Source of the DNA: Candidatus Hermodarchaeota archaeon
GTDB taxonomy: Archaea; Asgardarchaeota; Thorarchaeia; Thorarchaeales; Thorarchaeaceae
Reading direction: 5' to 3'
Length of the DNA stretch: 64,000 bases
Assembly (NCBI GenBank): GCA_048885865.1
Contig: JBHLLF010000014.1
Span: 1-64,000 of the forward strand
The notes below the pieces were generated by a model. The model searched no databases and was not told the origin of the DNA. It saw only the letters and a program-made list of their open reading frames with translations. The translations under genes and the position numbers were made by a program. Positions 2,133 through 36,404 of the stretch are shown in pieces (position 1 is the first letter of the stretch; every line of letters starts with the position of its first letter).

Positions 2133-3374
2133 ATGCACTTTGAAGAGTCGGAAGATGAAAAGATGTTCCGCGAGATGGTGCGTGATTTCGCTCAGAAATA
2201 CGTCGCACCGGAGTGGAAAAAATACGATGAGGAAACTCATGAGATTCCTAGAGACCTCATCAAGAAGATGGCGGAGCAAATGCTCTGGGCACCAACTGTC
2301 TCGGAGGAGAATGGTGGAGCTGGCCTCTCCTGGGTGATGGCGTGTATAGCCGCTGAGGAGCTGGCAAAGGCGGACCTCTCCATTGCGCTCCCAGTCATGT
2401 ATCTCGTTGAGGCCTCCTGGGCGTTTATCTTTGACAAGTACGGCACAGAGGAGGCAAAGAAGGAGATTCTGCCCAAGGTCTGTAGTGGAGACCTGTTCTT
2501 TGGGATCGCCACGACTGAACCCACCGGTGGTTCTGACCTCGTCAACTCGACCAAGACCACCATCAAGCCAAAGGGCGATGGCTTTGTCATAAACGGTGAG
2601 AAGGTCTACATTTCTGGCGTCAACGAGTCTGAGAAATATGGTGGTGTATATTGGACTCTTGCGAAGTCTGACCCCAAGGGCGACCACAAGGCCTTCGATG
2701 CGTTCATTCTGCCCCTCAACATGGGTGACGGGTTGCACCCTGGTATCACAACCACTCTCTTCGAGGACATGGGTCGGATGGGGGTCTCTTGCGGTGGATT
2801 CAACATCGAGGATGTCGAGATTCCCAAGCATTACCTGATCGGCGAGCACGGTCGCGGGTTCTATCACGCAATGGAAGGTTTCTCAGCAGCTCGCGTCTTA
2901 ATCGCTGCAACCTGTCTCGGCGCTGCACAAGCCTGCTTCGACATCGGTGTTGACTACGTCAAGCAGCGAAAGCAGTTCGGTCGACCACTCGCAGCCTTCG
3001 AGGGTATTCAGTTCGAGGCTGTAGACTCATGGATGGCATTGCAGGGCGACAGGCATATGACCTATCATGCCGCTTGGATGATGGACGAGTTCTACGGAAA
3101 GGGCAATCCCAATTACAACAAACTCGATATCGCCAAGTACACAGCAGCTGCTAAGTACAAGGCACCTCATGATGCTCTTGACATTATCACTCGCGCAATG
3201 ACGTGGCATGGTGCTTTTGGTTACTCCAAGGAGTGTCCACTTGAGGCATCCTACAGAGGCGTGCGTTCATATACGGTCGGGGCTGAGGGTGGCAGTCATG
3301 TCCAGAAAATCGTAATGGCGAGAGAGATATTCGGACCTGACTATCTGCCGTACAGGCAAGAGAAGCAAATGTAG
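2133..3374 (+). CDS. Acyl-CoA dehydrogenase (anchor gene of the cassette arrays)
   Basis: ATTEPTGGSD, INGEKVYIS, RKQFGRPLAAFEGIQF, HGAFGYSKE, AEGG..VQKIVMAR motifs. Confidence 0.97.
   Translation: MHFEESEDEKMFREMVRDFAQKYVAPEWKKYDEETHEIPRDLIKKMAEQMLWAPTVSEENGGAGLSWVMACIAAEELAKADLSIALPVMYLVEASWAFIFDKYGTEEAKKEILPKVCSGDLFFGIATTEPTGGSDLVNSTKTTIKPKGDGFVINGEKVYISGVNESEKYGGVYWTLAKSDPKGDHKAFDAFILPLNMGDGLHPGITTTLFEDMGRMGVSCGGFNIEDVEIPKHYLIGEHGRGFYHAMEGFSAARVLIAATCLGAAQACFDIGVDYVKQRKQFGRPLAAFEGIQFEAVDSWMALQGDRHMTYHAAWMMDEFYGKGNPNYNKLDIAKYTAAAKYKAPHDALDIITRAMTWHGAFGYSKECPLEASYRGVRSYTVGAEGGSHVQKIVMAREIFGPDYLPYRQEKQM
3309..3374 (+). repeat. Native ACAD 3' end; master copy of the 66-nt repeat
   Basis: atcgtaatggcgagagagatattcggacctgactatctgccgtacaggcaagagaagcaaatgtag. 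Confidence 0.95.
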
Positions 3375-3389
3375 TTTTCAATCTCATAA

Positions 3390-3421
3390 AGGGAGCGTGT
3401 TGCTCCCTCACTCTTCTTTTT
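3390..3421 (+). terminator. Hairpin plus pyrimidine tract after ACAD
   Basis: AGGGAGC-gtgtt-GCTCCCT followed by cactcttcttttt. Confidence 0.65.
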
Positions 3422-3486
3422 CACATCTTGCTACTCAAGCGCCTGCCTGCTGTCAAAGACTTCGGCAGGTCAATCAAGTGCGACCT

Positions 3487-5142
3487 TCACTCTCTTTTCA
3501 GAAGTATCACAATAACTGCAACCATCGCAACACCCACAGTTCCAGCACTAATGACCAGCCATTCAATTGGCACAATCGGTTCATCCGTGCTGATTGCTTC
3601 CACATCTGCCCTGAGTGTGAGTTTCAACACAAAGCAATCTCCGATTCTCTCGTAGGTACTATCGTATCCGTTAATGATGGGAAAATCAGCAGACTCAGTT
3701 GACCCTCCGATAAATACACCTCCTGTTTCGTCGATTGCAATAGATGTGGCACAATCAGAGTATTGTCCTCCAATGAAGGTTGAGTAGACCAAGTTTGAGC
3801 CGTTGGCAGAGAGCTTGAACACAAAGCAATCAGTGCTACAACATCCACCCTCTATGGTGCTGTCGAAAGCGTTTACCATGGGAAAATCTGAAGACTCAGT
3901 GATTCCTGTGACAAATGCGATGCCTGACGAGTCGATTGCAATAGATTTGGCATAATCAAATTCCACTCCGCCGATGAAGGTCGAGTAGAGCAACTCTGAA
4001 CCATCTGCGGAGAGCTTGAACACAAAACAATCGGTCCATCCTCCAATGGTCTCGTTAAAGGCATTCACCGTTGGGAAATCTGAGGACTCAGTGTTTCCAG
4101 TTACAAATGCATTGCCGGACGAGTCGATTGCAATAGAACTTGCATAATCAGATTCCACTCCGCCGATGAAGGTCGAGTAGAGCAATTCTGAACCATCTGC
4201 AGAGAGCTTGAACACAAAGCATTCCGACCCTCCTTGGATGATGTCGCCAAAGGCATTCACTATTGGAAAATCCGGAGAGGTAGTGCGTCCTGTGACAAAA
4301 GCGTTGCCAGACGAGTCGACCGCAATAGAACTCGCATCTTCAGATTCCGTTCCGCCGATCAAGGTCGAATAGAGCAACTCGGAACCATCTGCAGAGAGCT
4401 TGAACACAAAGCAGCCCCCGCTTCCCCCTGTATTAGTGCTGCCGAATGTGTTCACGGTAGGAAAATCTGAAGACTCGGTGCGTCCAGTGACAAATGCATT
4501 ACCCCACGAGTCGATTGCAATAGAACTAGCATAATCAGATTCCGCTCCGCCGACCAGGGTCGAGTAGAGTAACTCGGAACCATCTGCAGAGAGCTTGAAT
4601 ACAAAACATTCCAGCCCTCCTTCATAGGTCCTGTCGTAAGCATTGACTGTGGGAAAATCGGAAGACTCAGTGACTCCTGTGACAAACGCACACCCCGACG
4701 AGTCGACGGCAATGGAAGAGCCATGTTCAGAAGACTGCCCACCGATGAAGGTCGAGTAGAGTAATTCTGAACCATCCGCAGAAAACTTTGACACAAAACA
4801 ATCTTGGTTTCCGCCCATGGTGTTGTCATAGGCGTTGACCAAAGGAAAGTCAGGAGACTCAGTAATTCCTGTGATGTAGACACAACCAAATCTATCGACA
4901 GCTATAGACCCAGTCTCTTCATGCTCATTCCCCCCGATGAAAGTGGAGTAGTTTATGTGATTCATAATAAGCTGCTCTGACTCGTTGGAGTTCTGTACGG
5001 CGAAAGCTGCTTCAGATACAGTTGCGTACGGTTCAATATGGTCTGAAGAGAGGAGGAGTGGCATATAACCCAGTGAGATAAGGAACAGAGCTGAAACTAG
5101 AAAGACAGCAGTTCGTTTCACGGCAAACACCCACTCATTCAC
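3487..5142 (-). CDS. SBBP-repeat (beta-propeller) surface protein with C-terminal membrane anchor
   Basis: About seven YSTFIGG...SIAVDSSG.AFVTG.T.S.DFP repeats; N-terminal hydrophobic segment; C-terminal PIE-TM-KRE. Confidence 0.9.
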   Translation of the reverse strand: MNEWVFAVKRTAVFLVSALFLISLGYMPLLLSSDHIEPYATVSEAAFAVQNSNESEQLIMNHINYSTFIGGNEHEETGSIAVDRFGCVYITGITESPDFPLVNAYDNTMGGNQDCFVSKFSADGSELLYSTFIGGQSSEHGSSIAVDSSGCAFVTGVTESSDFPTVNAYDRTYEGGLECFVFKLSADGSELLYSTLVGGAESDYASSIAIDSWGNAFVTGRTESSDFPTVNTFGSTNTGGSGGCFVFKLSADGSELLYSTLIGGTESEDASSIAVDSSGNAFVTGRTTSPDFPIVNAFGDIIQGGSECFVFKLSADGSELLYSTFIGGVESDYASSIAIDSSGNAFVTGNTESSDFPTVNAFNETIGGWTDCFVFKLSADGSELLYSTFIGGVEFDYAKSIAIDSSGIAFVTGITESSDFPMVNAFDSTIEGGCCSTDCFVFKLSANGSNLVYSTFIGGQYSDCATSIAIDETGGVFIGGSTESADFPIINGYDSTYERIGDCFVLKLTLRADVEAISTDEPIVPIEWLVISAGTVGVAMVAVIVILLKRE

Positions 5143-5185
5143 AGATATCTGTATAGTCTATATGCAGCAGCTTTGTCAAAAATAA

Positions 5186-34967: not shown

Positions 34968-34993
34968 TCCTGTATTGACAAGAGGGTGATTGA

Positions 34994-35380
34994 TTGACGG
35001 ATGTGACAATACGAGGCATAGACGACCAAGTCTATAGCCTATTCTCTGCTGAAGCGAGAAGGAGAAGCGTTCCAATAGGAGAACTAGTGACTCAGGTCAT
35101 GCGAATCTTTCTCGAGGAAACAACTGAGAAGGTCTTCAGAGTGGAGAACCTCGATGAACTGACCTTGACCAAGGATGAACTGGAATCTGTAGGGGGACCC
35201 ATTGGATTCAGTGGGATCAAGACCCTCACCATTGCAGAAGATGTGGACTGGGAATTGTTTGACAAATACGTCGATGAGATCAGAAAATCCAAGACAGTTA
35301 TAATCCCCAAGTCCTTGACCAAATTGCAAGTACTCACAAAATGCAGAGGTGTGGACAAAATAGCTGTAGGAAGGCAGTAG
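34994..35380 (+). CDS. Hypothetical protein with ribbon-helix-helix-like N-terminus
   Basis: [22 protein letters not shown]. Confidence 0.7.
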
Positions 35381-35393
35381 GAGTGAATTCAAA

Positions 35394-36362
35394 GTGAAAG
35401 CGATTGTATACACAAGATACGGGCCGCCGGACGTTCTTCAAGTCAAGGAGATTGACAAGCCAACTCCGAAGGATAATGAGGTACTGATCAAGATACATGC
35501 GACAACAGTGACAGCTGCTGATTGGCGGATTCGAAAAGCAGATCCCTTCTTGGCGCGACTGATGAATGGCTTCCTTAAGCCCAAGAAGTGCAATATTCTC
35601 GGTATTGAGCTGGCTGGAGAAGTAGAGGAAGTAGGCAAGGAAGTGACAAGGTTCAAGCCAGGCGATCAGGTATTTGGAGGAATGGGCTTTGGCTTTGGCG
35701 CATATGCGGAATATGTTGTCCTACCTGAAGACGCTTCAATCACTCTAAAGCCGGCCAATCTGAGTCTTGAGGAAAGCGCTACTGTGCCAGTTGGGGCAGA
35801 TACAGCATTGTTTTTCCTTAGAACTCAAGGGAATATCCAGAGCGGTCAGAAGGTGCTCATCTATGGCGCTTCCAGTAGCGTGGGTAGTTATGCTGTGCAG
35901 CTGGCCAAGTACTTTGGAGCTGAGGTCACTGCGGTATGCAGCACTGCTAATCAAGAGTGGGTGAAAGACCTCGGAGCTGACAAGATGATCGACTACAAGA
36001 AGGAGGACTTCACTCAGAGTGGTGAGACCTACGATCTCATTTTTGACGCTGTGGGCAAGCTTTCGATTCTTGGCTCAATGAAAGCGTTGAAAGAAGATGG
36101 GATTTTTCTTGACGCCGTTGGCATGCTAAGAAGAGGTATCCAAGGGAAGTTGGCAACCATGAGAAACAACAAGCGAGTGCTTGGTGATACAGCAACTGGA
36201 AAGCTTGAAGACTTAGTCTTCCTCAAAGAGCTCATCGAGGCAGGAAAGCTAAAGCCGGTTATCGACAGACGCTACCGCTTGGAAGACATTGCTGAAGCTC
36301 ACAGGTACGTTGAGACCGGGAGAAAGAAAGGCAATGTCATAATTACATTGGACCATCTTTGA
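35394..36362 (+). CDS. MDR-family NAD(P)-dependent oxidoreductase (quinone oxidoreductase-like)
   Basis: [39 protein letters not shown]. Confidence 0.93.
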
Positions 36363-36373
36363 GCTAGGCTCCA

Positions 36374-36404
36374 AGGGAGCTTCTGGCTCCCTCTTTCTTC
36401 TTTT
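36374..36404. terminator. Hairpin between convergent genes, similar to the native ACAD terminator
   Basis: AGGGAGC-ttctg-GCTCCCT-ctttcttctttt. Confidence 0.65.

Follow-up and report, generated by a model that had tools for sequence, protein, structure and literature searches.

The window analysed here, a stretch of 64,000 nucleotides (nt), is the start of contig C14 (JBHLLF010000014.1) in a 3.58-Mb, 87% complete genome of a Thorarchaeia archaeon (Candidatus Hermodarchaeota archaeon, GCA_048885865.1). It contains ACAD, a gene for an acyl-CoA dehydrogenase of 413 amino acids (aa), behind which lies a row of passenger genes with old copies of the ACAD tail between the cassettes; this row is a real array. 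The array is likely to be the accumulated product of gene-end-replacing homing by a selfish nuclease. Its repeats bound cassettes that are exchanged as units, a nuclease with intact catalytic residues adjoins ACAD in relatives, and ACAD tails have been swapped between near-identical alleles; cleavage by the nuclease is a step that we infer.

The repeat unit consists of the last 66 nt (22 codons) of ACAD and a terminator hairpin that reaches 45–50 nt past the stop codon. The initial annotation of this DNA had recognised the tail and left out the hairpin. The copies that it had listed as full length, at 5186, 10492, 12171, 15021 and 17628, are identical to the resident tail at 59–60 of 66 nt (E ~1e-22). 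Among its partial copies, those at 9754, 16270 and 17028 are significant matches to the tail, and those at 31830 (31827 in the profile) and 11184 are recovered by a profile of tail and terminator. The degenerate copies at 24191, 26017, 31532, 33208 and 34491 also stand, while that at 26173 is doubtful and another, at 28930, had been missed. For each of the weak sites at 11184, 24191, 26017, 31532, 33208 and 34491, the homologous cassette of a different genome has a recognised copy 0–4 nt away. The left edge of the copies falls between positions −2 and +1 of the tail. All matches with E<0.1 in the genome are on C14 and on the plus strand, and therefore the repeat is not scattered in the manner of a miniature inverted-repeat transposable element (MITE). 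The array has the following features.

2133–3374, plus strand: host gene ACAD, with Pfam ACAD domains; homologs are named Ca. Thorarchaeota
3309–3374, plus strand: resident ACAD tail
3375–5185, minus strand: newest cassette, terminator and SBBP beta-propeller repeat protein (3487–5142)
5186–5298, plus strand: full displaced ACAD tail and terminator hairpin (sequence match, tail and terminator profile)
5299–9753: composite block with flavodoxin/4Fe-4S protein, two SCP2 proteins, FMN reductase and ArsR-type regulator (Pfam)
9754–9790, plus strand: displaced tail, positions 26–62 (significant match)
10492–10603, plus strand: full displaced tail and terminator
11184–11206, plus strand: short displaced-tail remnant (E=0.01; position matches a copy in G090)
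12171–12279, plus strand: full displaced tail and terminator, then iron-containing alcohol dehydrogenase (Fe-ADH) and esterase cargo
15021–15130, plus strand: full displaced tail and terminator, then LVIVD-repeat protein cargo
16270–16348, plus strand: displaced tail, positions 31–66, and terminator; a GNAT cassette follows, to 17027
17028–17075, plus strand: displaced tail, positions 1–41/49, which gives the stop codon to a convergent GNAT gene (17060–17617)
17628–17736, plus strand: full displaced tail and terminator
24191–24222, plus strand: degenerate tail (profile E=0.09 and synteny)
26017–26050, plus strand: degenerate tail (synteny only; G076 and G012 have copies 3 nt away)
26173–26191, plus strand: possible degenerate tail, the weakest (E=1.9; homology with G015 is interrupted at exactly this point)
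28930–28992, plus strand: degenerate tail (profile E=1e-5)
31532–31569, plus strand: degenerate tail, 5' half (E=3e-4 and synteny)
31827–31882, plus strand: tail 3' end and terminator (E=1e-6)
33208–33246, plus strand: degenerate tail, 5' half (E=5e-4, at 33210, and synteny)
34491–34530, plus strand: degenerate tail (synteny only, 3 nt from a copy in G096)
36373–36404, plus strand: ACAD-type terminator hairpin alone
36405–59249: probably an older, eroded stretch of the array, with nrd, more cargo and faint copies at 42863 and 47306 (several edges near repeats)

The cargo is mixed and includes beta-propeller and LVIVD surface proteins, GNATs, dehydrogenases, regulators and SCP2 proteins. The piece 6104–6942 of the composite block is a separate cassette elsewhere and begins 171 nt past the repeat in G002, G098 and G085. 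The array probably extends to at least 59 kb, and its DNA at 39.9–59 kb is 70–83% identical to between-repeat DNA elsewhere, compared with 80–97% nearer ACAD. The nrd gene had been taken as the right boundary, which makes the array too short; it was found in only three of nine relatives and never near ACAD where this could be checked, and hence it was also rejected as a conserved neighbour of the empty site. Here (rho −0.64) and in G018 the repeats clearly decay with distance from ACAD; in G076, G012 and G073 this trend is missing or runs the other way. Two observations make misassembly unlikely: in run X1, which may be the source sample, Logan unitigs cross the copies at 9754, 11184, 12171, 16270 and 17028 with 0–1 differences and even depth, and the same architecture is found family-wide. 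An Rfam search of the window gave no match. Cargo genes end in or beside truncated copies at 17028–17075, 11184–11210, 9754–9760 and 28930–28961, with the stop codon inside the repeat for those at 17060, 9760 and 28961.

The repeat is matched in 58 of 86 Thorarchaeia genomes, where a single match may be the ACAD gene itself. The 205 matches fall in 47 regions, 204 of them in direct orientation and 144 starting at model position 1–2. No ACAD-tail copy was found within 20–60 kb of ACAD in G019, G028, G031 and G034, and a search of viral contigs for the repeat pattern and the nuclease found nothing. Cassettes have a median size of 1.4 kb; those common to different genomes are up to 98% identical, have their edges at repeats and stand beside different neighbours. 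Among 80 such cassette pairs, 14 match edge to edge, and 61 edges are at repeats; the cassettes move as discrete units. For example, the GNAT cassette at 16356–17026 is 93–95% identical in G094, G068 and G096, which belong to two other genera, whereas ACAD is only 79–84% identical to its nearest relatives. In G015 the cassette order is reversed, with the 17145 cassette preceding the 15137 cassette, and in run X4 one contig shares the ACAD end exactly but continues into a different first cassette. Because cassettes are family-wide, exchanged and reordered, none of the three outcomes that the initial annotation had set as speaking against it, namely identical gene order in relatives, MITE-like scatter and misassembly, has come about. 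Its description of a serial gene-accumulation locus on the 3' end of a metabolic gene, with small integrase-free cassettes gained, lost and reordered at the repeats, is thus borne out.

Among 93 copies, 75 unrelated upstream flanks meet a single modal left edge, and the starts of partial copies are skewed to the right, ranging from 10 to 43; the +31 junction at 16270 is common to G090. Third codon positions account for 282 of the 403 differences in well-kept copies, which indicates that each copy once served as an ACAD end. In addition, a much longer piece of ACAD (residues 287–413, 69% identity) lies displaced in locus L268, about 10.7 kb behind the gene, which suggests a further cut site or a separate event.

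A clustering of 401 cargo proteins brought out one module, which recurs directly behind ACAD on the opposite, convergent strand. It is a protein of 560–1,070 aa, often preceded by an 860-aa ATPase. The protein is free-standing and contains two LAGLIDADG motifs, and its structure model (pLDDT 72) matches the folds of PI-SceI, the TliVMA intein, I-DmoI and I-SceI, with WhiA also among the matches. All 41 aligned sequences retain both catalytic Asp residues and a Lys at the block-D position. The nuclease has extra helix-turn-helix (HTH) regions, and a domain search gave no Hint or zinc-finger match. The L116 and L190 proteins are 1,049–1,073 aa long because of an internal duplication of their HTH-rich DNA-binding region. 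Of 59 distinct ACAD loci, 21 have the nuclease or its C-terminal remnant behind them within 700 nt; the same holds for only 1 of 214 displaced copies, in a copy sample biased to genera found by the query from this genome.

The minimal unit, in L114, is 4,953 nt long and holds only the nuclease and ATPase genes between ACAD and a displaced tail; other units also carry type I restriction-modification, Mrr/MatE or methylase cargo. The right junction is identical in L114, L115 and L116, as homing by homology predicts. The ATPase, which its sequence marks as putatively HerA-like (structure model pLDDT 38), is 61–91% conserved and is missing from the units of G024, L110 and L268. Of 85 relatives, 38 carry the nuclease family, as do 11 of the 14 genomes of one other Asgard family. 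The nuclease clades mostly follow the host gene, and nucleases are also flanked by duplicated ends of genes at gcvT, a carboxylase subunit gene, the urocanate hydratase gene and an ETF gene.

Beside the nuclease, the ACAD tail itself is recoded. Resident tails in this position differ from the consensus of displaced copies at 12–23 of 57 nt. The ACAD genes of L113, with a nuclease behind it, and L117, with none, are 99.3% identical until 84 nt upstream of the repeat edge and only about 61% identical after this break, over the last 26 codons. Among close pairs, 20% of residues differ in codons 387–398 compared with 9% in the ACAD body, which places this segment fifth among 402 windows. Gene ends in these genomes are chimeric.

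These features are best accommodated in a homing model. The nuclease would cut sensitive ACAD alleles about 66–69 nt before the stop codon, near the Lys392–Ile393 codons, which corresponds to about 3306–3309 in the window. The left end would then copy the donor ACAD tail, the terminator and downstream DNA, thereby restoring the gene. The right end, which carries the old tail, would be rejoined through homology with one of the tail copies of the donor array and thus import one or several donor cassettes; alternatively, end-joining after resection of 0–40 nt would produce a new junction and a new cassette. Tail-to-tail recombination or decay may later remove the nuclease unit, so that cassettes without a nuclease remain, and the tail copies would allow ordinary homologous recombination to delete and reorder cassettes. 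The window would be a nuclease-free array of such origin.

The closest parallel is provided by WHO elements, which reside at FBA1 in Torulaspora and Lachancea yeasts (PMC7282813; bioRxiv 10.64898/2026.08.13.744650). In both systems a free-standing two-motif LAGLIDADG gene with a fold closest to PI-SceI/VDE is located directly behind an intact metabolic gene, the newest unit is nearest the gene, and the gene's 3' part is far more divergent than the 5' part. The host 3' end is replaced, here by a presumably resistant version, and old ends starting near the cut, here a putative one, pile up downstream. A further parallel is found in the mORFs of fungal mitochondria, at atp6 in Allomyces and at atp6, atp9, cox2 and nad3 in Glomus (PMC3630166), in which an endonuclease open reading frame (ORF) brings a foreign C-terminus that displaces the native one and the tails are likewise short (51 nt at atp9). 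The features of WHO- and mORF-type elements, namely an adjacent LAGLIDADG gene, its catalytic residues and fold, 3' fragments with a common start and a chimeric, recoded 3' end, are all present in relatives. However, the mORFs are single organelle insertions with neither cargo arrays nor an ATPase. Compared with WHO, the host is an archaeon, the tail is 66 nt rather than about 400 nt long, and the nuclease is convergent, with HTH regions, an optional HerA-like ATPase and no zinc finger or splicing domain seen. The arrays consist of unrelated cargo genes instead of nuclease relics, many host genes are involved, apparently with 5'-end-replacing versions too, and cleavage is putative. Although it operates as WHO does, the system falls outside the WHO protein family, because it has no intein-like (Hint) or zinc-finger match and its target is ACAD, not FBA1.

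Several points weigh against the homing model, in addition to the bias of the displaced-copy sample. Unlike in WHO clusters, nuclease relics inside the arrays are nearly absent, with one clear nuclease and one ATPase remnant. The steps of repair, rejoining, nuclease loss and recombination are ones that we infer, and the model assigns no route to the transfer of DNA between lineages. C-termini are variable in any case, and surface windows around residues 23 and 319 vary to the same extent. No nuclease or remnant is found in this 87%-complete genome, so that the window is a relic or passenger array. Its resident tail and most displaced copies are near the consensus (5 of 57 differences); most cassettes therefore cannot individually derive from an element whose tail was recoded, and the repair, loss and recombination steps are needed. 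Together, the lack of a nuclease and the consensus-like tails imply that most cassettes came as passengers or were reshuffled by host recombination. A wider proposal, which we place somewhat below an even chance, is that of an integrase-independent Asgard gene-capture platform in which the nuclease and its HerA-like motor would drive cell-to-cell transfer. Repair of the cut would capture new DNA and import donor cassettes wholesale at the 3' and 5' ends of many housekeeping genes, and the arrays would be a main route of accessory genes across Thorarchaeia genera.

An improbable alternative to the homing model, which overlaps it and differs in the weight given to cutting, is that the nuclease only seeded the first duplications and has since been a passenger favouring the first slot, while growth and shuffling were mainly due to host homologous recombination acting on ACAD and the tail copies of incoming DNA. 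The identical ACAD tail with another first cassette in X4, the dominance of consensus-type tails, the lack of a nuclease here and the 14 cassette pairs common edge to edge are consistent with it. However, homologous recombination cannot make 75 unrelated junctions at one position.

Less probable again is site-specific accretion, in which the ACAD tail would be an attB site for a tyrosine or serine integrase acting in trans and the islands would decay to integrase-free, cis-mobilizable cassettes, as in the tandem ssrA islands of Dehalococcoides (PMC3146451). Those islands likewise lie in tandem behind a gene 3' end, with direct repeats of that end and many integrase-free members, showing that integrase-less tandem islands exist, and a direct repeat of the target gene 3' end with a fixed edge, as found here, together with a displaced old end is what integrases leave. 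However, the ssrA islands use serine or tyrosine integrases and a conserved att motif beside the repeat, neither of which is found here: no conserved arm precedes the copies (information content <0.15 bit), and a 12-6-12 dyad, tried as a site, reaches at least 10 of 12 in only 4 of 151 copies and is not conserved. Tyrosine (PF00589, PF16795), serine (PF00239, PF07508) and IS110 (PF02371) recombinases were not found in this genome; PF00589 is also missing from the array-rich genomes G020, G076 and G094, and PF07508 occurs in 2 and PF16795 in none of 86 genomes. A PF00589 recombinase is present in only 29 of the 86 Thorarchaeia genomes, so that many of them seem to be without even a Xer homolog. 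No PF00589 recombinase adjoins ACAD in any locus, and a scan of twenty integrase loci of relatives for the repeat gave one weak neighbour only. The doubtful case is G023:C52 (L096, 8402–10555), where a tyrosine recombinase, a nucleotidyltransferase and a small ORF are just upstream of a degenerate ACAD tail, the recombinase 1.1 kb from it; its homolog in G091 (87% identical) lies behind mtd with no ACAD copy, and the array DNA of 67 regions, about 465 kb in all, contains no other integrase. Accretion also leaves unexplained the recoded tails and the conversion tract that reaches 84 nt upstream.

The initial annotation had likened the locus to an integron with att sites. Integrons and clusters of attC sites lacking integrases (CALINs), the archaeal ones of which are enriched in Asgard genomes (PMC9668308), too have small, often single-gene cassettes that are exchanged between lineages, with older ones distal. 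Here, in contrast, no IntI or attC hairpin is seen, the spacer is coding sequence with a terminator, and cargo lies in both orientations. For six copies, folding is no better than that of shuffled sequences (z −0.14 to +1.1). Because there is no attC-like fold, no conserved arm and no recombinase in the genome, the locus is not an integron. Staphylococcal cassette chromosome (SCC) elements at rlmH and ICESt1 relatives at fda are comparable islands behind gene 3' ends. Very unlikely, finally, is that the LAGLIDADG protein is a non-cutting, WhiA-like DNA-binding or targeting subunit with the ATPase or an unknown enzyme performing targeted insertion of a new type; the WhiA fold match, the extra HTH regions and the conserved ATPase agree with this, but the catalytic residues are kept throughout, ATPase-free units exist, and target-site recoding fits cleavage.

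Gene starts show a similar arrangement. In loci L264 (9246–14789), L258 (2504–12157), L265 (5031–7671) and L266 (13221–16412) the nuclease is upstream of its host gene and co-oriented with it. At gcvT, the carboxylase subunit gene and the urocanate hydratase gene, the host 5' end is duplicated on the far side of such a nuclease. These four loci are possible 5'-end-replacing elements. In the window, the ACAD promoter and the first 4–6 codons are duplicated twice upstream of ACAD (263–2149), with one cargo gene between; at least 10 relatives have comparable copies upstream, and no nuclease is seen upstream of ACAD in the window.

263–359, plus strand: displaced ACAD promoter and first codons (5' mirror array)
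1040–1136, plus strand: displaced ACAD promoter and first codons, then CAAX-protease cargo (1132–2049)

Contig C94 of G000 carries a HerA-like ATPase (4161–6658) whose relatives in G011, G100 and G109 adjoin nucleases; because the contig ends inside this gene, a nuclease may be unassembled. In three relatives of this genome, a nuclease comes directly after such an ATPase. On contig C56 of G000 (11492–13991), the tail of a 139-aa gene is repeated twice downstream at 76%, a possible second small array. A second anchor gene proposed at 58515–59240 was not accepted, since its tail copy has E=0.48 and the gene itself is array cargo in G012.

The initial annotation recognised no such system as described in archaea, and none was found in the searched literature either, which covered few subscription papers and held no description that joins Thorarchaeia or Asgard archaea with LAGLIDADG proteins or homing. 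End-replacing homing has so far been described from a few yeasts and fungal mitochondria. The homing model lends itself to a direct test with purified protein on synthetic ACAD tails. The nucleases form a family of meganucleases whose targets are readable from displaced fragments, and the chimeric gene ends are a warning for reading these genomes. If the homing model is true, end-replacing homing also operates in Asgard archaea and with cargo, so that a selfish nuclease does the job of an integron there, and it would explain a major hypervariable region of Thorarchaeia genomes, in which assemblies often break.

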